From: Acidimicrobiia bacterium | GTDB lineage: Bacteria > Actinomycetota > Acidimicrobiia > Spongiisociales > SHLN01 | NCBI GenBank assembly: GCA_041619515.1 | Contig: JBFKDW010000008.1 | Coordinates: forward strand, 1 to 60,668 | Length of the DNA: 60,668 nucleotides | Direction: 5' to 3' | In this document: one piece after another, positions 3,312 through 15,862 of the stretch | How the letters are laid out: each line of letters starts with the position of its first letter | Position numbering within the stretch: position 1 is the first letter of the stretch | Notes under the pieces: model-generated | The model's input: only the letters and a program-made list of their open reading frames with translations | The model's database searches: none | Told to the model about the DNA's origin: nothing | Program-made: the position numbers and the translations under genes

Positions 3312-4562
3312 TCAGTCTGATCCCAGGCCGGCCGGTGCCAGCCGGACTGCCGCCTCGATGGCGTTGTAGACCTGGCGAGTGAGGTTCCTGTCGCCCGGCG
3401 GCATCAGGTTGGACATGACCCGGAATGTCCACTCCATCAGCGGACGAGACCTGAATCCGGCGGTCATGAACGCCCGCATGATGGAGGGATTTCCGATGGC
3501 CCGAACGAACACCCTTCCGACCCGGTAGTAGTCGCCGAACTCGGCTTCGAGCTCCTCGGGAAACCTGCGCAGGATCGACAAGTCATCGGCCACCAGCGCC
3601 CGGTGGGCGGTGTCTGCAGCCATTCGCCCCGTCTGGTACCCGTAGGCGATGCCTTCCCCGGTGAACGGGTTGGTCGATCCCAGCGCGTCTCCCACCAGCA
3701 CCCAGTTGGGTCCGGCGATCGGCCCGCCCGACATGGCCATCGACAGCTTGCCCCCGACCGGTTCGGTGAGCCGGGACGTCCAGTCCACCTGCCAGTGGCC
3801 GGGAAGGTTGTGCAGGTAGGTATCGAGCAACTGGCCCGTGTTGACCCCCTTCCACCGTTTGCTGGTGGACAACAGCCCCACCCCGATGTTGACGGTCCGG
3901 TCACCGAGAGGGAAGGTCCATCCGTAGCCGGGGACGTTCTTTCCTTCCCTGTCTTTCAAATCGAGCAAGCTCTCCATCATGTCGTCGCCGGCGAATGGGC
4001 TCGAGTAGTACGCCCGCAGCGCCAAACCGTACGGGGCTTTGCGGTCCCGGCCGACACCGAGCGGGCGACCGAAACGCGACACTGCCCCGTCGGCGATCAC
4101 AACCATGCGGGGTGTCATGATCTCGGTGTCACCGTTGCGCGAAACGGCGACACCGGCCAGCCGGCCGTCGTCGATGACCGGGGCAGCCAGTGCTCCGTCG
4201 TGGATGACCACCCCCTGCTTCTCGGCCAGCATCGCCACCTGCTCATCGAGGTCGGCCCGGCGGATGATGGCGCCCCACCGCGGGTAGATCGGATGGTCGG
4301 GCCACCGCATCTCGAGCATCGAGCCGGCCCCGTAGGAGCGGAGCCCGTTGATTCTGTGCAGCTCGGGGACGTCGAAATCGAAACCCATCTGCTGGAGCTC
4401 GTGAATCGCCCGCGGGGTGAGCCCGTCGCCGCAGGTCTTCTCTCGCGGATAGGTCTTCTTCTCGATCAGCGCGACCGAGTGACCGGCCTTGGCCAGCCAG
4501 TGGGCGGCGCTGGCCCCGGAGGGACCACCCCCGACCACGACGACATCGAGAGACTGGGACAT
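3312..4562 (-). CDS. Geranylgeranyl reductase family FAD oxidoreductase (MenJ-like menaquinone side-chain reductase candidate)
   Basis: VVGGGPSG, REKTCGDGLTPRA, GYGWTFP and GD...NPFTGEGI motifs. Confidence 0.85.
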   Translation of the reverse strand: MSQSLDVVVVGGGPSGASAAHWLAKAGHSVALIEKKTYPREKTCGDGLTPRAIHELQQMGFDFDVPELHRINGLRSYGAGSMLEMRWPDHPIYPRWGAIIRRADLDEQVAMLAEKQGVVIHDGALAAPVIDDGRLAGVAVSRNGDTEIMTPRMVVIADGAVSRFGRPLGVGRDRKAPYGLALRAYYSSPFAGDDMMESLLDLKDREGKNVPGYGWTFPLGDRTVNIGVGLLSTSKRWKGVNTGQLLDTYLHNLPGHWQVDWTSRLTEPVGGKLSMAMSGGPIAGPNWVLVGDALGSTNPFTGEGIAYGYQTGRMAADTAHRALVADDLSILRRFPEELEAEFGDYYRVGRVFVRAIGNPSIMRAFMTAGFRSRPLMEWTFRVMSNLMPPGDRNLTRQVYNAIEAAVRLAPAGLGSD

Positions 4563-5588: not shown

Positions 5589-6524
5589 CTAGGGACTGGC
5601 GGTCGTGTCCTCGCCGACGGTGAGGCAGTCTGCCTCTACCTCGGCGGCGTCGAGGCCGCCGTGCGTGACGCGCTCGAAGATGACGACGGCGGCTATCTCC
5701 TCGGGCGTGAGGCCTGCGTCCTCATAGGACTGCATGACCCCGCCGCCTCCCACCGGCTTGTTCTGGGCCCCATAGGTGTCGCCGACTTCGTTGCGCCAAC
5801 GGTTGCTACCGAGCGCTACCCACGCGATGTGATCGGCGCAGGATGGGAACGTCTCCACCACCGCGCCCCCGGCCAGCGCCGGTCCCGTGCCCCCGCCTCC
5901 GTCTGCTCCATGACAGCTCAGGCAGGCAGGGGACGCGTCTACCGAGTAGAGCGCCGCACCCAGCCGGAGCGGGTTGCCGCCGAGAGAGCCGAATTCGGTC
6001 CCGTCACAATTCTCGGCCACGCCCGTCACCGGATCGACCGCCAGCGCACCCCCGCGACCGCAGCTGGGCCCGGTGGCGAAGGTGGCGGCATAGAAGAGGG
6101 CGACGAGCGGTACCACCATGAAGGTGGCGGCCAGCCAGCGCGGCAGTGACTTGCGCCTCAGCTCGCGAATCCCTGCCGAGCCCACGAGTACCTCCTCGGG
6201 CTCTTCCTCCGGCTCCGGCTCGGGCTCGGGCTCGGGCTCGGGCTCCGGCTCCGCCTCTGTGCTCGGCGACACCACTTCGACGTCGAGGGTGGCGGCGGGC
6301 TCAGCGGCAGGCGCCGCCGGCGTCGCCGGTGCCGCCGGGGCCGCCGGGGCATCCGACTGGGGGGCGGAACTCACCGAGCCGGCGTCGACACCCGCCCACC
6401 CGGCGAGGATCTGCTCGGGAGCGACGCCTTCGGCAGTTGCCCGAGCCCGCGCCGAACGCCCGACGAGCTCGGCAGGGGCCGATAGTGCGTCCGAGGCGGC
6501 TGAGAGAAGCTGTTCGAAATCCAT
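5589..6524 (-). CDS. Membrane-anchored monoheme cytochrome c with N-terminal helical module and Ala/Pro/Glu-Pro linker
   Basis: CLSCH heme motif, candidate axial Met (VMQSY), single TM after RRKSLPRW. Confidence 0.88.
   Translation of the reverse strand: MDFEQLLSAASDALSAPAELVGRSARARATAEGVAPEQILAGWAGVDAGSVSSAPQSDAPAAPAAPATPAAPAAEPAATLDVEVVSPSTEAEPEPEPEPEPEPEPEEEPEEVLVGSAGIRELRRKSLPRWLAATFMVVPLVALFYAATFATGPSCGRGGALAVDPVTGVAENCDGTEFGSLGGNPLRLGAALYSVDASPACLSCHGADGGGGTGPALAGGAVVETFPSCADHIAWVALGSNRWRNEVGDTYGAQNKPVGGGGVMQSYEDAGLTPEEIAAVVIFERVTHGGLDAAEVEADCLTVGEDTTASP
6211..6252 (-). repeat. 6-bp coding tandem repeat giving an (EP)n rod-like linker
   Basis: ggctc(c/g) x7 on the plus strand. Confidence 0.85.
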
Positions 6525-8462
6525 TTACTGCAGGCTCACGATGTACTGGGCGAGCGCATCGAGCTCGTCGTCTGTCAGGTAATCGTAGGAGGGCATCGCG
6601 GACCACGCGCGACCAAGGCGGGGGTTCGCCAGATGGCCGGCCACCCAGTCGACGTCGTCGGTGGGCGCCCGCCGACCGGCATGAGCCAGGTCCGGCCCGA
6701 GGCGGATGCGACCGAGCAGAGCAGGAGAGGTAAGGGTGACGTCCTGCCGACTGGTGACGGCCCCGAGACCGACGTCCGTGACGTTGGCGCGGACCTGTTG
6801 GGTGTGGCAGTACACACACCCCTCGGCGATGTAGATGTCCCGACCCTCGGCGACCAGGCGCAGGTCGAGGCCGAGCTCGGCAAGGAGGTCGGCTGCCTGG
6901 GGCGCACCGGTACCGGCGGCGAACGCCTCGTAGTCACGGGAGGAAACGGCCAGCAGGCTCGGCTCCTCATCGGACGCGTCCAGCACCGGCATGAGCACGG
7001 TGGTCAGGAAGGCGGCTCCGATGATGAGCACCGCTGCTGCCGCGACTTTGTTGGGCGGGAGCACTCCGAGCTCATCGGGCTCGGCAGCGTCACCGGAAGG
7101 GGATCCAATCGGAGAGAAGTGCCACCGACCGCCCACGGCCGTCCTCACGGCGAACCAGACCAGCCCGGCGGCCACGAGGACCCAGGCGAGCCAGCGGACC
7201 GTGTCGAAGCCGGCCAGCTGAGCAGTGGTGTTGACGAAACCTTCGCCGTAGTTGACGAAGTCCTGAGAGGCCGGCCCCGCCGACCAGGTGAAGCCGGTGA
7301 GCAGCCCCCCGAGCCAGAGGGTGGCGACCAGGACCGCCACGCCCGGGAACGCCAGCCGCAGCACGGACTCGCCACCCCCCCGCAGATGTGAGAGCAGCGC
7401 CAGCAGCCACATGCTTCCGGCGCCGAGCACTGTGATCACGAAGGTTGCCTCCGTCCAGGTGGTGAACTGGACGATGGTGCTGGAGGACCGGAAGGCCAGC
7501 GCCAGGATCTGCAATCCGAGCAAAGCGAAGAACGAGGTCCCGGCGAGTGCAAGGCGGACGGGTGTCGAACGGCGGGCGGCCGCCCAATCGATCGACAACA
7601 GCAGGTTGGCCACCGCCGCAGTGATGGGAACGAGCACGGCAATGGCAAAGACAACGGTGATGGTCTCGAGCCAATCCGGCCCCGGCCCGAACGTGAATGT
7701 ATGTGCCCCCACCCAGGCGAAGGTCCCCGCCACCGACCAGAAGCTGACAACCGCCAGCCGCATGCTGAACAGGGGCGTATCGGTCAGCTTGGGAATGATG
7801 TAGTAGGCGATGCCGAGACCGGCCGGAACCACCCAGAGGAAAAGCACTCCGGCCTCGGCGAAGCGGTTGACGAGCTCGAGATCCGTGCCGCGAAACCCGG
7901 CCAGGGAGCCAACGAGGTAGGAGACGAGCAGCCACCACACGGATGCCACGAAGAACCACACCGACACGTACACGTGCGGCTCCCGATGGGCGACGGCCGT
8001 CCGGGTCACAACCCGTGTCACCCCGGTGAGGCCGGCGATGATGGCGATATCGGAGTAGAACGGAAACTCGAAGAGCGGGACGCCCTGGTTGCCTCCCAGC
8101 GCTACCGCCACCAGGCCGATGACTGTGCCGGCGGCGATGAGGACCAGCGACAGCAGTGCCAGCGGCTCTTCGTGCAGTGGCGCCCCGGTGAGCCGCGGCA
8201 GCAAGTAGTAGATGGCGCCGATCAGCCCGATCGTGAGCCATCCGAACAGCAGCGCCCCGGTGAACACCGGGTGCAAGCGACCGTAGCTGAGCGGTCCGGA
8301 ATTGAGGAACCCGGGTGCACTCAGCTCGATAGCGAGCAGGAGGCCTGCCGCCGCTCCGATGGCGAGGAATAGTGCGGCGACCCGGAAGTGGATCTTGGCT
8401 AGTGCATCGGCTCGGGCGCCGATGTCGCTCTCTGGCACTGCCGTGTCTGTTGTCAACCTCAC
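6525..8462 (-). CDS. CcoN-like/CcoO-like fusion (cbb3 oxidase subunit I+II homolog); CcoN part lacks most metal ligands
   Basis: CcoN-like segments SYGRL.P, IYYLLPRLTG, VYVSVWFF and YYIIPK; CcoO-like YIAEGCVYCHTQQVR, RLGPDLAH and SAMPSY. Confidence 0.88.
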   Translation of the reverse strand: MRLTTDTAVPESDIGARADALAKIHFRVAALFLAIGAAAGLLLAIELSAPGFLNSGPLSYGRLHPVFTGALLFGWLTIGLIGAIYYLLPRLTGAPLHEEPLALLSLVLIAAGTVIGLVAVALGGNQGVPLFEFPFYSDIAIIAGLTGVTRVVTRTAVAHREPHVYVSVWFFVASVWWLLVSYLVGSLAGFRGTDLELVNRFAEAGVLFLWVVPAGLGIAYYIIPKLTDTPLFSMRLAVVSFWSVAGTFAWVGAHTFTFGPGPDWLETITVVFAIAVLVPITAAVANLLLSIDWAAARRSTPVRLALAGTSFFALLGLQILALAFRSSSTIVQFTTWTEATFVITVLGAGSMWLLALLSHLRGGGESVLRLAFPGVAVLVATLWLGGLLTGFTWSAGPASQDFVNYGEGFVNTTAQLAGFDTVRWLAWVLVAAGLVWFAVRTAVGGRWHFSPIGSPSGDAAEPDELGVLPPNKVAAAAVLIIGAAFLTTVLMPVLDASDEEPSLLAVSSRDYEAFAAGTGAPQAADLLAELGLDLRLVAEGRDIYIAEGCVYCHTQQVRANVTDVGLGAVTSRQDVTLTSPALLGRIRLGPDLAHAGRRAPTDDVDWVAGHLANPRLGRAWSAMPSYDYLTDDELDALAQYIVSLQ

Positions 8463-8585
8463 TCCCGAACGCTTCGCACGAGGTTACATCGAGCCGTCCT
8501 CGCCGGGCGATTCTCGTCCAAGGGATTGCGAAATCCAAGCCCCGCCGTCCGGGCCGGCCCCATTTGCTCCGGCTAGCGTCCCGAT

Positions 8586-9017
8586 ATGGACGACGCGGAC
8601 GCATTGGCCCGGCTATCCGCGGCTCGGGTTGCGGTTCTGGCGACCGTTCGGCCCGAGGGTGGCCCCCATCTGGTGCCCGTGACATTTGCCTCGCTCGGCA
8701 ATCGGCTCGTCTCGGCCATCGACCACAAGCCGAAGCGGACCGGCCGCCTGCAGCGGCTGGAGAACATCCGGGCCGACCCGCGGGTATCACTGCTGGTGCA
8801 CGGGTACGACGATACGTGGCGCCGGCTCTGGTGGGTGCGAGCCGACGGCTCCGCCGCGATCATCGATCGGGGAGTCGACTTCGAGGCAGCACGAGCGGCC
8901 CTGGTGGAGAAGTATGTTCACTATCGAAGCCGCTCCCCGGCAGGCCCGGTCATCGAGATTGCGGTCGAACGGGTGGTCGGGTGGGAGTCGTCCCCGGGTG
9001 AGGCCATCGGGACGTAG
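8586..9017 (+). CDS. PPOX-class F420-dependent oxidoreductase (Rv0121-like)
   Basis: LATV..PHLVPVTFA, IDHKPK and LWWVRADG motifs. Confidence 0.85.
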   Translation: MDDADALARLSAARVAVLATVRPEGGPHLVPVTFASLGNRLVSAIDHKPKRTGRLQRLENIRADPRVSLLVHGYDDTWRRLWWVRADGSAAIIDRGVDFEAARAALVEKYVHYRSRSPAGPVIEIAVERVVGWESSPGEAIGT

Positions 9018-9107
9018 TCTGCTCATCACGAAGCCGGCGACCACCGGCGCGGTAAAGTGGGCGCCGCATCACCGGGCGTGAAAGACTCGGCAGGATTAGG
9101 ACACGGC

Positions 9108-9695
9108 TTGACTGAGCAACGACGCAAACTCATCGGGATCGGCGGGATCGTCGCCGGGCTCGGCATGGTGGCGGTAGGCCTCGTCGTCGCCCACTTCACG
9201 TTCCTACCCACCGAAGACGCGCTCGGCAACGAGGTGCTCCCGTCGATACCGCGCGGCTGGCAGCTATACACACTCGGCCAGCTCGTCGCCGTCGGGGGCA
9301 GCCAGCTGATCGTGGCGGGGGTCTTTATCGGCTGGCTGTGGGAGAAACCCATCACCTGGGTGCGGGCGGCCGTTGCCTCGCTGCTCGGTTGGTTCCAGCT
9401 CGTCCTGTACTTTGGGATCATCCCCTCCGAGATGCTCAACCTGGCACAGGGGCCGCTCGAGTGGACATCCCGCACGGCCTTCACCATCCCGAGCTGGCTC
9501 GTGCTGAACAACGAGATCTCGATCAGCTGGCTGACCATCAAGGACGCACTGGTCGCCGGCTATTACACCAATGCGTTCATCGTGCTGATCGTCGGCATCT
9601 ACATGGCGCAGGTGTGGATCAAGAAGCGGGCCGAAGCCACCCCGGTCATCGAGATATCCACCTGGGGCAGGCCGATGCGGAAAGGCAGCGCCTGA
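9108..9695 (+). CDS. Uncharacterised multi-pass membrane protein, first gene of the Rieske/cytochrome b operon
   Basis: 3-4 hydrophobic segments; TGATG overlap with the ferredoxin; start uncertain (9057 or TTG 9108). Confidence 0.75.
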   Translation: MTEQRRKLIGIGGIVAGLGMVAVGLVVAHFTFLPTEDALGNEVLPSIPRGWQLYTLGQLVAVGGSQLIVAGVFIGWLWEKPITWVRAAVASLLGWFQLVLYFGIIPSEMLNLAQGPLEWTSRTAFTIPSWLVLNNEISISWLTIKDALVAGYYTNAFIVLIVGIYMAQVWIKKRAEATPVIEISTWGRPMRKGSA

Positions 9696-10138
9696 TGGCC
9701 GGCGAGATCTGGGAGACACCGCCATTCCGGGACGACTATCAGCTGGCAGTGGTCGATCCCACCTACATTCAAGAGGCGGTCCGTCCCAAGCAGTTCCTCC
9801 ACATCAACCAGGCTGAGTGCATCCTGTGCGAGGGCTGCGTGGACATCTGTCCCTGGAAATGCATCCACTACTTGTCGGTCGACGTCATCGAAGAGGCCGT
9901 CAACGTCGCCGACCCGGCCGCCGATGCCGGCAACCTCGGGGTGTTCATCGTCGACGAGGACGAATGTACCCGGTGCGCCCTGTGTATCGATCGATGCCCG
10001 ACGGGTGTGATCACGCTCGGCAAGTTCGCCGGCTCGCTGGCCGACCAGGCCGACCAGCTCGGCCTGCCCGCACCGTGGGAGATCGACACCGGCGATCGGG
10101 ATTTCAAGAACGGCTACGCGTACGGGGTGCGATGGTGA
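9695..10138 (+). CDS. 2x[4Fe-4S] ferredoxin
   Basis: CILCEGCVDICP and CTRCALCIDRCP; ATG at 9695 overlaps the upstream stop; no signal peptide. Confidence 0.92.
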   Translation: MAGEIWETPPFRDDYQLAVVDPTYIQEAVRPKQFLHINQAECILCEGCVDICPWKCIHYLSVDVIEEAVNVADPAADAGNLGVFIVDEDECTRCALCIDRCPTGVITLGKFAGSLADQADQLGLPAPWEIDTGDRDFKNGYAYGVRW

Positions 10139-10150
10139 GAAAGGGCGATC

Positions 10151-10939
10151 TTGGCTAACGGCAATGGGAACGGCAACGGCGGGCTCAGGCTGAAAGAGCG
10201 ACTGTCCGGCGTGGGAACCAAGCTGCGCGACAGTGAGGCATGGGCGAGTATCTTCAGGCCCGGGTCGCCGTTCCGAGCGGGATACTCGGACTCACCGCGC
10301 AACCGGTCGTACGTCATCATGAACAACGTTCTCTATCACCTCCACCCGGTGAAAGTGAAACGCCACGGCGTGCGACTGTCCTACACGCTGTGTCTCGGCG
10401 GCCTGTCGTTCTTCTTGTTCATCCTGCTGACCGTGACGGGCATCTTCCTGATGTTCTATTACACCCCGTCGGCCGAGGCGGCCTACGCCGACGTCCAGGC
10501 GTTGTCGACCAGCGTGACGTTTGGCGGCCTGGTTCGAAACCTCCACCGCTGGGGCGCCCACTTCATGGTCATCACGGTGTTTCTCCACATGAGCAGGGTC
10601 TTCTACCACGGCGCCTACAAGCCACCCAGGGAGTTCAACTGGGTCATCGGCGTGATCCTCCTGCTGCTCACGCTGTTGCTCTCGTTCACCGGATACTTGC
10701 TGCCCTGGGATCAGCTGGCGCTGTGGGCCGTGACCGTCGGTGGCTCGATGGCCGGCTTCACCCCGGTGTTCGGTGACCAGGTGACCTTCGCCCTACTGGG
10801 TGGCGTCGAGATCTCGGGAGCGACGTTGCTCAGGTTCTACGTGCTCCACGTCTTGTTCCTGCCGTTCATCATCGTCATCTTCATGGCCGTGCATTTCTGG
10901 CGGGTTCGCAAGGATGGCGGCATCTCCGGTCCCCTTTAG
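10151..10939 (+). CDS. Cytochrome b6-type (short, 4-helix) cytochrome b of a Rieske/cyt b complex
   Basis: YTLCLGG (heme-ci Cys position), LHRWGAH...[13 protein letters not shown], helix-D H-x14-H and C-terminal GISGPL. Confidence 0.93.
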
Positions 10940-10954
10940 GCTCGAGGAATCCAT

Positions 10955-12133
10955 ATGGCTGACATCCCAGATCCACTGCTCCGCAGATCGGCCGAGGCGA
11001 GGGCGAGCGCCGAGGGCGTGACCGTCGAGGAGATCCTCGCTCGCTGGCGTGGTGAGGCTCCGGCGGAGGCATCGCCGCCTCCGGCGACGCCCGCCGAGGA
11101 TGCTCCGGCCCCCGCCGCCGCACCTGCGGCTGCTGCCATGTCGACCGAGGAGTACGCCAAGGCGGCCGCCGCAGCCTCCGGCATGCCCGAAAAGCTCATC
11201 ATGCGCTCCGCCCAGGCCAAAGCCAAGGCACAGGGAGTCCCCGTCGAAAGCGTCCTCGCCGAGATGGCCGGCCTCCCCGACCCGGGAGCCGCCCCCGCCC
11301 CGGCCGCAGCAGGCGCCGCCCCCACCGCAGGCGCCGCACCGGTGGCTGCTGCCATGTCGACCGAGGAGTACGCCAAGGCGGCCGCCGCAGCCTCCGGCAT
11401 GCCCGAAAAGCTCCTCATGCGCTCCGCCCAGGCCAAGGCCAAGGCACAGGGAGTCCCCGTCGAAAGCGTCCTCGCCGAGATGGCCGGCCTCCCCGACCCC
11501 GGAGCCGGCCCCCCTCCCCCGGCGCTCGCCCCGACGGGCACCAACGGGACTGCCGCGGCCCCCGCCCCGGCGCCGGCTGCCGTTCCTGCCCCGGCCCCGA
11601 GCGGGCCGCCCGAGGGGGTTCGCACCCAACGTCTCCTCACCGTCGTCCAGGCGAAGGCCATCCAGCAGGTCAAGGCAGAGCCGACCGACAAAGTGAACGT
11701 GTGGCCGCACCTGCTTGCCATCGAGTTCGTCGCCCTGCTGGCGGTGACGGCCGTACTCATCGTGATCTCGGTCATCATCAACGCGCCGCTGCTGGAGGCT
11801 GCCAACTTCAACCTCACCCCGAATCCCTCTAAGGCCCCGTGGTATTTCCTCGGGCTCCAGGAGTTGCTCTCCTACTTCGATCCGATGATCGCCGGGGTGC
11901 TCATTCCCGGGCTCATCGGCCTCGTCGGCCTGATGGCGATCCCCTACATCGATCGGAATCCGTCGGTGCGACCCGCCGACCGCAAGCTGGCCATCATGAT
12001 GTTCACGTTCTTCCTGATGGGTGCCGCCACGCTCGTGATCCTCGGATCGTTCTTCCGGGGGCCGGGTTTCAACTTCACCTACCCCTGGAGCGACGGCGTG
12101 TTCTTCGACGACCTCAAGGACTGGCTGGAATGA
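10955..12133 (+). CDS. Cytochrome b6f subunit IV (PetD-like) with long repeated N-terminal extension
   Basis: [24 protein letters not shown] (PEWY-like) and PYIDRNP; 3 TM segments. Confidence 0.9.
11116..11507 (+). repeat. In-frame near-identical duplication (~175 bp units, period 216 bp) within subunit IV
   Basis: [20 protein letters not shown](I/L)[30 protein letters not shown] begins at 11138 and again at 11354. Confidence 0.95.
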
Positions 12134-12960
12134 GCGCAGGACAAGCAGCCGCCTTGGGAATTGCCATCGTCGCCGTCCTCTCCTCGGTGGCCATACTCGC
12201 CCTCGCCTGGCGAAGAGAAAGCGAATCTTCATCGATCGGCACGCTCGATCGCGAGGCGAGACGCGCCCGCGTCCGGCGGCCCGTGCTCGGCGCTTCGGGC
12301 GCGGCCGTGCCGGGGGAAGCAGACCGCCCGGTGGAGGCCGCCGCCGTAGCCGTCGGCGAGCCGGCCGAGGCTTCCTCCCGCGTCGTCGAGCTGACCCCCG
12401 CCCAATTCGGCGAAACTCGCCGCCAATTCCTCAACCGCGCCATAGGGGTCTCCTTCGGAGCCTTCCTGGCATTCTTCGGGATCACCTCGCTTGCGTTCCT
12501 GTGGCCGCGGCTCAGAGGCGGCTTCGGCGGCAAGATCGATGCCGGAGCCATCTCCGACATCAAGGAGGCGATCTTCCAGCCCGACGGCTCCATCGAGCCC
12601 TTCTACGTCGCCGAGGCCAAGACCTACGTTGTTCCCTTCAACCAGGGGTTGATCGACGAAACGGACTTCGCAGGTATCGATGTGGTCGTCGAAGGGCTGA
12701 CCGGGCTGTGGCAAAAGTGCGTGCACCTGGGTTGCCGGGTGCCGTGGTGCAATTCCTCGCAGGGCTTCGAGTGCCCCTGTCACGGATCCAAGTACAACGC
12801 GGCGGGTGAATACGAGGCCGGCCCGGCTCCGCGCAATCTCGACCGGTTCACGCTCGAAGCAGTCGAGGGACGGTTGATCATCAACACCGGGGCCGTGCGC
12901 GATACCCCCCGGGCCAAGGTCAAGACCGTGCCGTACCCACAGGGGCCGAACTGCCTGTGA
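12130..12960 (+). CDS. Rieske [2Fe-2S] subunit
   Basis: CVHLGC and CPCHGSKY; internal Tat motif TRRQFL; ATGA overlap with the subunit IV stop. Confidence 0.93.
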
Positions 12961-12967
12961 GCGCTCC

Positions 12968-14461
12968 GTGAGCCTCGGACCTTTCGCCGTCATCATTGCG
13001 GTCGTGTTCCTGCTGGGCGGCTTGGCCTACCTCGTGAACAGCGGACGCGGCCCCCGGCCCGGCCGCGAGGTGCCGCCCAACCTGGCCCCCTACCTGACCG
13101 ACGAGGAACTGGAGACCTCCCGGCTCAATCGTACGCTGGTCACCGCCCTGTTCTCCTCGGCGTTCCTTGCCATCGCACTGCCGGTGTACTTCCTCACCGA
13201 GTCGGGCCGCCAGGATGATTTCGTGCACATGTTCGAGGAAGAAGCCATCCACATCGGCGAGGCGATCTACCTCAGGCAGACTCCGGACAACCCAGAGGGT
13301 TTTGGCTGCATCGCCTGTCACGGTGCCGAAGGAGTTGGCGGGGGCGCAACCTATGTCGATCCCCGTACCGGCGCCAGTGTCACCTGGCCGGCCCCGGCCC
13401 TCAACGACGTGCTGTATCGATACGACGAGGAGGAGGTGCGCTACTGGCTCATCTGGGGCCGCCCCGGCAGCCCGATGCCGGCCTGGGGCGTCGAGGCAGG
13501 CGGCCCGCTCAACGATCAGCAACTCGATTTCGTCATCGAGTATCTCCGGTCCATCCAGATTTCCCAGGACGAGGCAATCGGAGAGGTCGACAACCGCGTC
13601 GCCGCGGAACTCGCCAAGCTCGAGGCCGCCCCGGCCACGATCGACACGGCCATTGCCGGCCAGCGGGGTCGCCTGGCCGCCATCGTCAGTGCCCCTGATC
13701 GGCTGGAATGGGCCGAGCGCCTGTTTAGCGATCTGGAGCAAGTGCTCGACGCCGCACCCTCAGGGCTCGATACGGACCTCGACGGTCTGTCGGACGACGA
13801 CGAGATCCAGGTCAACCGCATTTCCGAGCTGGCGTTTGCCAACGTCGGCACCGACGCCACCCCGGCGACGGCCTCCGCCGCAGATTTGCTGGTTCTGCTG
13901 CTCGACCCCGCCAACCCCTTCTCGACCAACGACGACGTGGGAGAACCGATACCAGACGCGATCGCGGCCACCCAATTGCTCGCCGAGCTCGAGAGCCAGG
14001 TCGCCACCTTGTCGCCGATCGCTCTGAATGTCGACACGCTTCGATCCGCCGCCGAAGCGGCCCTTTCCAATCTGGAGGCTGCGCGCGCGGCCGAGCGGTA
14101 CACCGTCGACTTCGAGGCCCTCGCCGAGAGCACGTTCGGGGGCGACATCGAGACGGCGCAACGGGCGTACGGCCTGTACTCGGCCTACTGCGCCCGCTGC
14201 CACACCGCCGGGTATTCCGCAGGACCCGCTGCCACCCTCGCTCCCGGCTCCGGGGCGCTCGGCCCTTCCCTGCGAGAGGGCCGCTCCATCGTTCAGTTCC
14301 CGGACTTCGAAGATCACTACGAGTTCATCGTCGACGGATCCGAGAACGGTCAACCGTATGGTGTGAATGGCATCGGCCGCGGCTGGATGCCGGGGTTCGG
14401 CGCTGTTCTCTCGGAGGCCGACATCCGCCTCATCGTCGAGTTCGAAAGGAGCCTCGATTGA
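12968..14461 (+). CDS. Membrane-anchored di-heme cytochrome c
   Basis: CIACH...PMPAW and CARCH...WMPGF; two N-terminal hydrophobic segments. Confidence 0.9.
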   Translation: MSLGPFAVIIAVVFLLGGLAYLVNSGRGPRPGREVPPNLAPYLTDEELETSRLNRTLVTALFSSAFLAIALPVYFLTESGRQDDFVHMFEEEAIHIGEAIYLRQTPDNPEGFGCIACHGAEGVGGGATYVDPRTGASVTWPAPALNDVLYRYDEEEVRYWLIWGRPGSPMPAWGVEAGGPLNDQQLDFVIEYLRSIQISQDEAIGEVDNRVAAELAKLEAAPATIDTAIAGQRGRLAAIVSAPDRLEWAERLFSDLEQVLDAAPSGLDTDLDGLSDDDEIQVNRISELAFANVGTDATPATASAADLLVLLLDPANPFSTNDDVGEPIPDAIAATQLLAELESQVATLSPIALNVDTLRSAAEAALSNLEAARAAERYTVDFEALAESTFGGDIETAQRAYGLYSAYCARCHTAGYSAGPAATLAPGSGALGPSLREGRSIVQFPDFEDHYEFIVDGSENGQPYGVNGIGRGWMPGFGAVLSEADIRLIVEFERSLD

Positions 14462-14805
14462 TCGACATCACTCTGCCCGAGAGCGTCGTCTTCCGCGGAC
14501 TGTTCGTGACGATCGGGTCGATCATCGTGTTCTACGGGAGCGTCTACCTGCTCGTGTACACCAATCTGGGCAAGAAGCTCGCCTTCCTGATTTCGGGCGC
14601 GGCCCTGTTCGGATGGACATTTCTCAACAGCCTCCTGTTCGTCATCTACGCGCCGCGCGGACCGCGCCCCGCCGTTATCGACGGTCTCAACTTCTTCGAG
14701 GTTCGAGTCACGGCACTCAGCTTCATGCTGGGATCGGCCATTCTGTTCATCATGTTCCTGGTGGCACTCAACCGCCTCGAGACCGCGGATTCCGACACGA
14801 CGTGA
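14458..14805 (+). CDS. Small 3-TM membrane protein (possible accessory subunit)
   Basis: Overlaps the cytochrome c stop; three hydrophobic segments. Confidence 0.75.
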   Translation: MIDITLPESVVFRGLFVTIGSIIVFYGSVYLLVYTNLGKKLAFLISGAALFGWTFLNSLLFVIYAPRGPRPAVIDGLNFFEVRVTALSFMLGSAILFIMFLVALNRLETADSDTT

Positions 14806-14921
14806 CCGCCCTATGCTTTCTGGGTAGTGCACCCCTATCCGGCTTGTGCCGCACCTCGAACGGCCTGTCCCGGCCGTGGCTTCGTCGCCATATCGGATGA
14901 GCGCCGCCTGACCGATCCGGC

Positions 14922-15551
14922 ATGAAGGGCATACCTCCTGCCACAGTGCAACGACTCCCCATCTACCTGCGGTGCCTGGGTGAGTACGGCAAGCAGACGA
15001 TCTCATCCGAGAGCCTGGCCGAGCTGGCGAGAGTCAACTCGGCGAAGGTCCGTAAGGACCTTTCTTTCCTCGGCTCGTACGGAACACGGGGCGTCGGCTA
15101 CGACGTCGACCACCTCGTCTATCAAATCGGCCGCGAGCTGGGATTGACCAAGGACTGGGCGGTGTGCATCGTCGGGATGGGGAACCTCGGCCGGGCACTC
15201 TCCAAGTACCGCGGATTCGGTGAGCGCGGATTCGCCGTGCTCGGCCTGTTCGACATCGATCCCGCCAAGATAGGCAAGAAGGTCGCGGGCAGGGTGATCG
15301 AGCCTCTGAGCGCTCTGAGCGACGCAGTCAGGGACCGCCAGCTCTCGATCGGCGTGATCACAACACCGGCCAATGCCGCCCAGGAGGTAGCCGACATCAT
15401 GGTGCAAGCCGGCATCACCTCGATCCTCAACTTCGCGCCGACCGTCCTGTCGAAACCCGACCACGTCGACGTGCGTCGCGTCGATCTCTCCACCGAGCTT
15501 CAAATCTGCAGCTTCTACCTGGCGAGAGCTTCCGGAAAGCGGGCCAGCTGA
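14922..15551 (+). CDS. rex: Redox-sensing transcriptional repressor Rex
   Basis: IPPATVQRLPIYLR, VRKDLSFLGSYGTRGVGY, GMGNLG and ILNFAP. Confidence 0.97.
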   Translation: MKGIPPATVQRLPIYLRCLGEYGKQTISSESLAELARVNSAKVRKDLSFLGSYGTRGVGYDVDHLVYQIGRELGLTKDWAVCIVGMGNLGRALSKYRGFGERGFAVLGLFDIDPAKIGKKVAGRVIEPLSALSDAVRDRQLSIGVITTPANAAQEVADIMVQAGITSILNFAPTVLSKPDHVDVRRVDLSTELQICSFYLARASGKRAS

Positions 15552-15595
15552 CACGCCTGGCCATACCCTCTACGCTGGGTGCAACGGAAGGTTTG

Positions 15596-15862
15596 ATGAT
15601 GGTCGATAGCCTCTACGTCGAGCTCATCACGAAGGACAACTGTCCCCTCTGCGAGGCGGGAGCCGAGACCCTGAATCGAGCAACCTCAAAGCTCGGCATC
15701 GAGGTGCGCGAGGTCGACATCTTCGATGACGACGACATCTACGACGAGTACTCGACGCGGGTTCCCGTCGTCCTCGCTCCCAACGGTTCGGTCATCGACG
15801 AGGGCAAGCTGTCCCAGGCCAAGCTGACACCGGCGCTCTTGCGGCTGAAGGTCAGCGGCTGA
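15596..15862 (+). CDS. Glutaredoxin-like protein (DUF836-type)
   Basis: CPLC and RVPVV; usual neighbour of rex in actinobacteria; start uncertain. Confidence 0.82.
   Translation: MMVDSLYVELITKDNCPLCEAGAETLNRATSKLGIEVREVDIFDDDDIYDEYSTRVPVVLAPNGSVIDEGKLSQAKLTPALLRLKVSG

Follow-up and report, generated by a model that had tools for sequence, protein, structure and literature searches.

The subject of this report is a small helical module that recurs on respiratory proteins of an Acidimicrobiia bacterium (GenBank assembly GCA_041619515.1). The window analysed is the whole stretch of 60,668 nucleotides at positions 1 to 60,668 of contig JBFKDW010000008.1, in which a minus-strand operon (CcoN/CcoO-like protein and cytochrome c) diverges from a plus-strand operon for a cytochrome b6-type complex. 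The module is carried by the cytochrome c of the former and by subunit IV of the latter. It is a real, conserved and unnamed domain of 33-45 residues, predicted to fold into three helices, and it probably acts in protein-protein docking, with a partner or with itself. Tentatively, it is read here as a swinging arm, each copy of which would bind one common cytoplasmic partner. New in this work are a natural deletion in family f7, two architectures of the gene clusters (types A and B) compared on a tree, and a single-helix core found class-wide.

Four copies are present in this genome, three in a long form and one in a short form (Table 1). They lie at the coordinates given in the original prediction and align as it had claimed, which was confirmed by re-alignment. 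All six pairwise local alignments exceeded 5000/5000 shuffles (scores 78-214, shuffled maxima 41-64), and the cytochrome c copy outscored 2000/2000 shuffles of the whole Ala/Pro-rich N-terminal 220 residues of subunit IV, which presumably extend into the cytoplasm. Copies 2 and 3 of subunit IV have a repeat spacing of 216 nt and differ at 2 nucleotides across the 135-nt module; they stem from one recent tandem duplication, so that the alignments amount to three independent ones and not four. Two other studies have runs whose contigs span the duplication junction, and close homologues from other sources likewise have three copies. A six-frame search of the genome with the four-copy profile gave no fifth copy (next match at E 0.5), and two wider profiles likewise matched only the open reading frames of cytochrome c and subunit IV. 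The linkers are rich in Ala, Pro and Glu, in agreement with the Ala/Pro or Glu-Pro linkers first described. The predicted cytoplasmic placement is supported by the 5 Lys/Arg among the 15 residues before the transmembrane helix of cytochrome c, and by the occurrence of the module on soluble KorA (see below).

The AlphaFold model, built from a 127-row alignment, has helices at residues 3-14, 18-32 and 36-44 (H1, H2 and H3), with a predicted local distance difference test score (pLDDT) of 97.2 and a predicted template modelling score (pTM) of 0.75. In the 127-member alignment of diverse module copies from which conservation was taken, P17, R23 (99%), S24 (95%), A25, A27, A29, G33, L40 and G45 are invariant or nearly so. 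L20, R23, S24, A27 and A31, each 72-100% conserved, fall within about 100 degrees of the helical wheel of H2. H2 is slightly basic (mean net charge +0.6) and the module as a whole is net acidic (mean -2.2). In the consensus first proposed from the four copies, the Val- and Glu-specific positions are variants of this genome. The claim that the module belongs to no named family was borne out. Pfam and NCBIfam gave no meaningful match (best E 0.003, in 2/127 members), a sequence search of the PDB nothing significant, Foldseek with the module model nothing at E ≤ 0.001, and look-ups in the ESM Atlas no usable match. Helix-turn-helix (HTH) domains gave no match at curated level (best HTH_23, E 0.024 in 11/127 members), and the carriers are membrane or metabolic proteins. 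A wide structural search returned middling neighbours only, namely designed toroids, the AROD domain of RPA and ANTAR proteins, the natural ones at 4-13% identity. The module is undescribed in the titles and abstracts of the literature searched, a search outside which most subscription journals lay, and the available part of a genomic study of the order (PMC12008989) gives complexes I-IV without mention of it. Such blanks are no proof of novelty.

Related loci come from records that are mostly Acidimicrobiia. The four-copy profile matched 182/401 genomes of the class, 104/109 of the same order and 65/65 of family f12, a small-genome marine family with genomes of roughly 1 Mb that presumably resemble Ca. 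Actinomarina. Among the five negative genomes of the order, three have no subunit IV match, one has a subunit IV cut at a contig end, and one has a paralogue only. A profile centred on H2 matched 65/80 genomes that had been negative earlier. Outside the order, what occurs class-wide is a single helix of about 17 residues. Subunit IV often has two of these and the small cytochrome c one; P, H, L and R are invariant in 51/51 segments, and an unconserved linker follows. Outside the class, a sample of the phylum yielded 4 weak matches only, to unrelated proteins or spurious frames. A protein library of 1.84 billion representatives gave 475 matches, and carrier classes were taken from the best 150 of the 475: 25 small cytochromes c, 15 subunits IV, 12 CcoO-like proteins, 6 proteins X (see below) and 92 fragments or unclassified proteins. 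Further carriers may exist beyond those classified. Among these best 150, single chains have up to 7 module copies. One seven-module protein (P0009) has a C-terminal part like a short subunit IV remnant joined to the small two-transmembrane protein that follows the operon (see below), and could be either a fusion or an artefact of assembly.

The gene clusters fall into two architectures. Those of type A (families f2, f5, f6, f8 and f12; n = 28) have a separate CcoN. Both CcoO and the small cytochrome c bear the module in 28/28; subunit IV bears it too, as a single copy in 22/28. The fourth carrier of type A is an unlinked multi-pass protein, here called X, with the module in 35/35 genomes for which the locus was fetched. 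In type B (f1 including the window, f3 and f4; 28 complete clusters, with 3 incomplete ones left out) CcoN and CcoO are fused and devoid of the module, with one ambiguous split, and 2-6 copies per cluster are divided between subunit IV and cytochrome c. X occurs in 11/35 f3/f4 genomes and in 2/2 f1 genomes, and is shorter and without module in 13/13. Tandem expansions are seen in 26/28 two-carrier clusters as against 6/28 four-carrier clusters. The copies on CcoO and cytochrome c are 81% identical within a genome and 59% between genomes (56 loci, some of them near-duplicates). X adjoins the caa3 oxidase operon in 12/12 wide loci and 11/11 type-B loci, and in f12 directly follows ctaG on the same strand; no cta gene was seen in one 12-kb locus with X (L230). 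X has no Pfam family and no clear structural match, and its model is confident (pLDDT 88) with seven helices. Located at contig C6:61055-62041 (+) of this genome and at L263:9428-10525 elsewhere, it is a candidate new accessory subunit or assembly factor of caa3. A fixed tetramer, in which each genome would keep four copies, was discarded, with totals of 2-6 in two-carrier genomes, 7 in some genomes and chains of up to 7.

The contrast between the two types favours a doubtful alternative, a widened form of the tether first proposed, in which modules would pair with each other, like with like or short with long, and so staple together the b6-type complex, the CcoO-like and small cytochromes, X and sometimes KorA or complex I. 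The module stands on CcoO where this is a separate protein and never where it is fused to CcoN, as if a non-covalent link stood in for a covalent one. The distribution of the module on X, the position of X beside the caa3 operon, the closer identity of copies within a genome and the expansions in two-carrier clusters point in the same direction. However, type A forms one clade (Shimodaira-Hasegawa-like approximate likelihood ratio test, SH-aLRT, 92), monophyly of type B is not rejected (approximately unbiased test, p-AU 0.64) and the tree gives no direction for the change, so that the whole contrast counts as a single evolutionary event. One locus (L036) has a separate CcoO without module, and family f6 expands its copies without loss of carriers. 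Gene conversion between adjacent genes would also give the identity within genomes, and repeated copies joined by flexible linkers would be expected to pair inside a single chain. In family f7 there is only one carrier. A complex prediction for two module copies scored 0.01 against a mark of 0.42, and bears neither for nor against binding.

Family f7 represents a natural deletion. Its operon remnant encodes a diverged membrane protein (found by profile and missed by single-query search), a cytochrome b, and a subunit IV whose 2-4 modules include one or more of near-canonical sequence; in 5/5 genomes every module match lies on subunit IV. The cytochrome b, at 43-46% identity, retains the four heme histidines and has lost the CxGG cysteine. 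CcoN and CcoO were not found in 5/5 f7 genomes, in a search run without control, and X was not found in the same five. The operon ferredoxin and the small cytochrome c were not found in 4/4 genomes, in a search that detected its positive control, and heme-copper oxidase subunit I was not found in 2/4. All f7 genomes are drafts of 95-100% completeness. The module has thus been kept where the second carrier and the operon ferredoxin are missing, and f7 rules out that ferredoxin, which has no orthologue in 4/4 genomes, as an obligate partner. The remnant (L213:5267-7397, L402, L403) has neither Rieske protein nor c cytochromes, and may have become a quinone-reactive membrane anchor.

Soluble carriers were found in f12. 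Among 14 f12 genomes picked for extra module matches, the short form is present on KorA in 11, at the N-terminus, the C-terminus or both; the module-bearing KorA scores above the TIGR03710 cut-off. An assembly chimera was rejected for this fusion, which recurs in 11 genomes. In one f12 genome the short form stands at the start of NuoI, in a nuo cluster without E/F/G between D and H. The KorA and NuoI copies are closest to the subunit IV type (74% and 68% identity, against 27-48% to other types), which from this comparison of sequences is their source. The f12 KorA (L279:4645-7335, L285:4508-7219) is extended at either terminus by very long repeats rich in Glu, Val and Pro, and its C-terminus also has a conserved, repeated VTER-like segment; contigs often break there. 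KorA and NuoI of the window's own genome carry no module. This genome has two complex I clusters in tandem (contig C19:12384-20942 and C19:26716-39528), in one of which nuoD is followed directly by nuoH with no E/F/G, and in the other of which a 4.3-kb gap lies at that place.

Four things favour the docking arm for a common partner over self-association: an ancestral form of one helix, the single carrier in f7, tandem arrays of varying copy number, and the presence of the module on KorA and NuoI. A lone short helix on a disordered tether is the shape that a motif binding a folded partner usually takes, and arrays of up to 7 copies per chain with cluster totals of 2-6 fit avidity rather than a fixed stoichiometry. 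The working part of the arm would be helix H2 with the core P-x2-L-x2-R-S-A-x-A-[RK]-A, which alone is class-wide and would be packed into a stable two- or three-helix domain in this order and f12. Displayed in the cytoplasm on disordered Ala/Pro/Glu tethers, each copy would bind the same third molecule, with avidity gained from tandem copies. Such an arm would need only nearness to the b6-type complex, so that any member of the assembly (subunit IV, small cytochrome c, CcoO-like protein or X) could carry it, and other enzymes needing the same partner, such as KorA and NuoI, could pick it up.

The leading candidate for this partner, on which a good part of the weight of the docking arm is placed and which is itself uncertain, is an acidic ferredoxin, either the universal single-cluster one or, where present, that of the operon. 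KorA exchanges electrons with ferredoxin, and the complex I without nuoEFG and the b6-type complex with its own ferredoxin presumably do the same. Ferredoxin is the most economical common client of KorA, the NuoI-containing complex I and the b6-type complex. A small, strongly acidic ferredoxin was found in 30/30 genomes searched, f7 included (best match per genome 65-99% identity); in this genome its gene lies at contig C69:1112-1381. The operon membrane protein and the surface of cytochrome b are the next candidates. Several observations weigh against a common partner of this kind. Three carriers, namely the small cytochrome c, CcoO and X, are without a redox centre on the cytoplasmic side; on these the arm would be a tether only, for which self-association is simpler. 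A net-acidic module with an only slightly basic H2 suits an acidic ferredoxin poorly. In the order, 4/4 module-negative genomes have the small ferredoxin too, so that its distribution speaks neither way, and no gene was identified whose presence follows that of the module. Finally, module-bearing KorA and NuoI are confined to part of one genus.

The original prediction had taken the module for an unnamed docking-type domain, which is supported by the absence of library matches, the confident fold, the invariant helix core, the flexible tethers and at least six unrelated carriers. Its proposal of a tether between the products of the two operons proved too narrow, as carriers are found also at caa3, KorAB and nuo loci and f7 has subunit IV only. 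Its other proposal, recruitment of ferredoxin, fails for the operon ferredoxin as an obligate partner and gains support in a wider form, given the KorA and NuoI carriers and the acidic ferredoxin found throughout the genomes searched.

The remaining explanations are less probable. A tag for biogenesis, localisation or turnover would be an N-terminal domain recognised by an insertase, a chaperone, a protease adaptor or a scaffold, or one that helps to set an N-in topology. In nearly all membrane carriers the first copy does begin at residue 1 or directly beside it, and these carriers all belong to one pathway; however, the module also occurs internally in tandem and at the C-terminus of soluble KorA, and most subunits of the same complexes lack it, so this role is considered improbable. 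Somewhat less credible again is a sensor, in which the Arg-Ser pair (class-wide also the His) would bind a phosphate-containing ligand, lipid or metal and regulate the complexes. The conservation of R23 and S24, and of the His outside the order, agrees with this, but within the order conservation of the His at that column drops to 13%, so small a domain leaves little room for such a role, and the sole match to nucleotide-binding families was in 1/127 members at E 0.11. An ANTAR-like, RNA-binding role, through which translation or the location of mRNA would be tied to the membrane, is very improbable. Four chains, EutV 6wsh, NasR 4akk, Rv1626 1sd5 and AmiR 1qo0, whose matched ranges we take to be the ANTAR domains, belong to the seven best structural neighbours (Z 4.8-5.3, root-mean-square deviation (rmsd) 2.0-2.3, 45 residues aligned), but Z lies within the tool's range for common arrangements, no PF03861 match was obtained in 127 members, the hhalign probability was 0.2% (two ANTAR sequences only), and the module is net acidic. 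A functionless repeat spread by gene conversion and duplication, as the recent duplications and near-identical copies on adjacent genes might suggest, is just as remote in view of the class-wide invariant residues, the confident fold and the persistence of the module in f7 as the operon around it decayed.

Table 1. Modules, associated repeats and genes of the two divergent operons in the window.
Feature	Position	Strand	Remarks
Module, long form (H1-H2-H3), N-terminus of cytochrome c	6390..6524	-	
Module, short form (H2-H3), extreme N-terminus of subunit IV	10955..11053	+	
Module, long form, subunit IV copy 2	11138..11272	+	
Module, long form, subunit IV copy 3	11354..11488	+	recent tandem duplicate of copy 2
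Two 200-nt direct repeats with copies 2 and 3	11102..11517 (11102-11301, 11318-11517)	+	93% identical
Linker from module to transmembrane helix of cytochrome c	6174..6389	-	72 residues, Ala/Pro/Glu-rich with Glu-Pro repeats
Small membrane-anchored monoheme cytochrome c	5589..6524	-	one CxxCH, one transmembrane helix
Fused CcoN-like/CcoO-like protein, without module	6525..8462	-	CcoN-like part without canonical His ligands
Unnamed membrane protein, first gene of plus-strand operon	9057..9695	+	
2[4Fe-4S] ferredoxin of operon	9695..10138	+	acidic, 25 Asp/Glu against 10 Lys/Arg
Four-helix cytochrome b, b6 type	10151..10939	+	above NCBIfam ExtP cut-off
Cytochrome b6-type complex subunit IV	10955..12133	+	PF00032, three transmembrane helices, APWY Qo motif
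Rieske protein	12130..12960	+	
Diheme cytochrome c	12968..14461	+	

The plus-strand genes stand in the order unnamed membrane protein, ferredoxin, cytochrome b, subunit IV, Rieske protein and diheme cytochrome c. The host complex has the features of b6f-type Rieske/cytochrome b complexes, namely a four-helix cytochrome b with heme-ligand His and CxGG, a separate three-helix subunit IV and a Rieske protein, the definition being that in the available text of PMC5600118. According to the part of PMC4122944 available, the APWY clade comprises split cytochrome b complexes, with an Acidimicrobiia member among the split forms, and no APWY protein has been characterised. In nearly all clusters examined the b6-type operon opens with the unnamed membrane protein, which has a conserved C-terminal S-x-YGR motif, and the 2[4Fe-4S] ferredoxin (window 9057-10138, +). 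Many genomes of the order have a second cytochrome b cluster, about 50% identical, with a fused flavoprotein-ferredoxin gene upstream; its subunit IV is without module in the sole case read (L147). Downstream (3') of the operon, at 14458-15862, lie genes for a small unnamed two-transmembrane protein, a Rex-like redox regulator and a glutaredoxin-like protein, and on the other flank a geranylgeranyl-reductase-like gene (3312-4562), the names having been given by reading of the sequence. These flanking genes were found again in most relatives.

The minus-strand operon resembles that of a cbb3 oxidase. Its small cytochrome c is CcoP-like by position only, scoring far under the NCBIfam ccoP cut-off. 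Among the CcoN-like homologues (n = 51) no His column exceeds 53%, and in an alignment to the solved CcoN (6xkw_n), with His ligands at the positions we presume for that chain, the ligand motifs for heme b, heme b3 and CuB are replaced. The CcoN-like protein thus lacks the His ligands that define cbb3 oxidases and, on its sequence, would be a pseudo-oxidase. It is nevertheless kept together with the CcoO-like protein and small cytochromes, 1-Mb genomes included. Genes for caa3 are present in this genome, and more likely the CcoN/CcoO-like genes form a cytochrome relay or scaffold and caa3 is the real terminal oxidase.

A wider proposal, which is rather unlikely, would have the whole energy metabolism of Acidimicrobiia, including abundant streamlined marine lineages, organised by one portable cytoplasmic tag that either captures ferredoxin or clusters with itself. 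If true, such a tag can be fitted to complex I and to the b6-type complex, to pseudo-cbb3 cytochromes and a caa3-linked protein, and to KorA, giving a tethered ferredoxin-to-oxygen assembly built from the cytoplasmic side, unlike membrane-packed supercomplexes. To our knowledge, what keeps the respiratory supercomplexes of bacteria together in the known cases is contacts in the membrane, lipids or tails on the outside. Electron transport would then be wired differently in a class that is common in oceans, sediments and sponges. The partner would reveal the cytoplasmic entry of electrons into uncharacterised APWY-type b6 complexes, and with a small soluble domain and invariant residues to mutate it should be cheap to find. 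A small orthogonal docking pair would also serve as an engineering tag.

Several known systems may be compared with the module. The host complex shares the split cytochrome b, subunit IV and the APWY Qo motif with APWY-clade complexes, for which an N-terminal module or extension goes unmentioned in the available text (PMC4122944). In the bc1-cbb3 supercomplex of P. aeruginosa, the N-terminal tail of cytochrome c5, 16 residues in length, contacts cytochromes c1 and c4 according to the part of PMC10556555 available. As with the module, a short segment on a linker keeps a cytochrome at the bc complex; that tail, as described there, is unique to one protein, whereas the module is presumably cytoplasmic, folded by prediction and common to many proteins. 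ANTAR proteins may have a similar three-helix arrangement (Z 4.8-5.3), and the module differs from them in its low identity, lack of a profile match, absence of a sensor domain and membrane-tethered context. The best natural structural neighbour is the AROD domain of archaeal RPA (8aa9, 8aaj; Z 5.4, rmsd 1.9, 45 aligned), a small helical protein-interaction domain, with 9% identity, an unrelated context and a Z in the range of common arrangements. In 2-oxoacid dehydrogenase E2, the peripheral subunit-binding domain (PSBD, PF02817), with lipoyl arms, is a helical domain of about 40 residues on Ala/Pro-rich linkers, of variable copy number, that captures a partner enzyme. The module lacks the Gly-rich loop motif of PSBD, has three helices and stands on respiratory subunits and KorA, not on E2; no PF02817 match was found at E ≤ 1 (0/127 members), and hhalign against 21 PSBD sequences gave a probability of 0.3%. 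What the two share is a small helical domain on flexible Ala/Pro-rich linkers, a likeness in the presumed way of working and not of membership.

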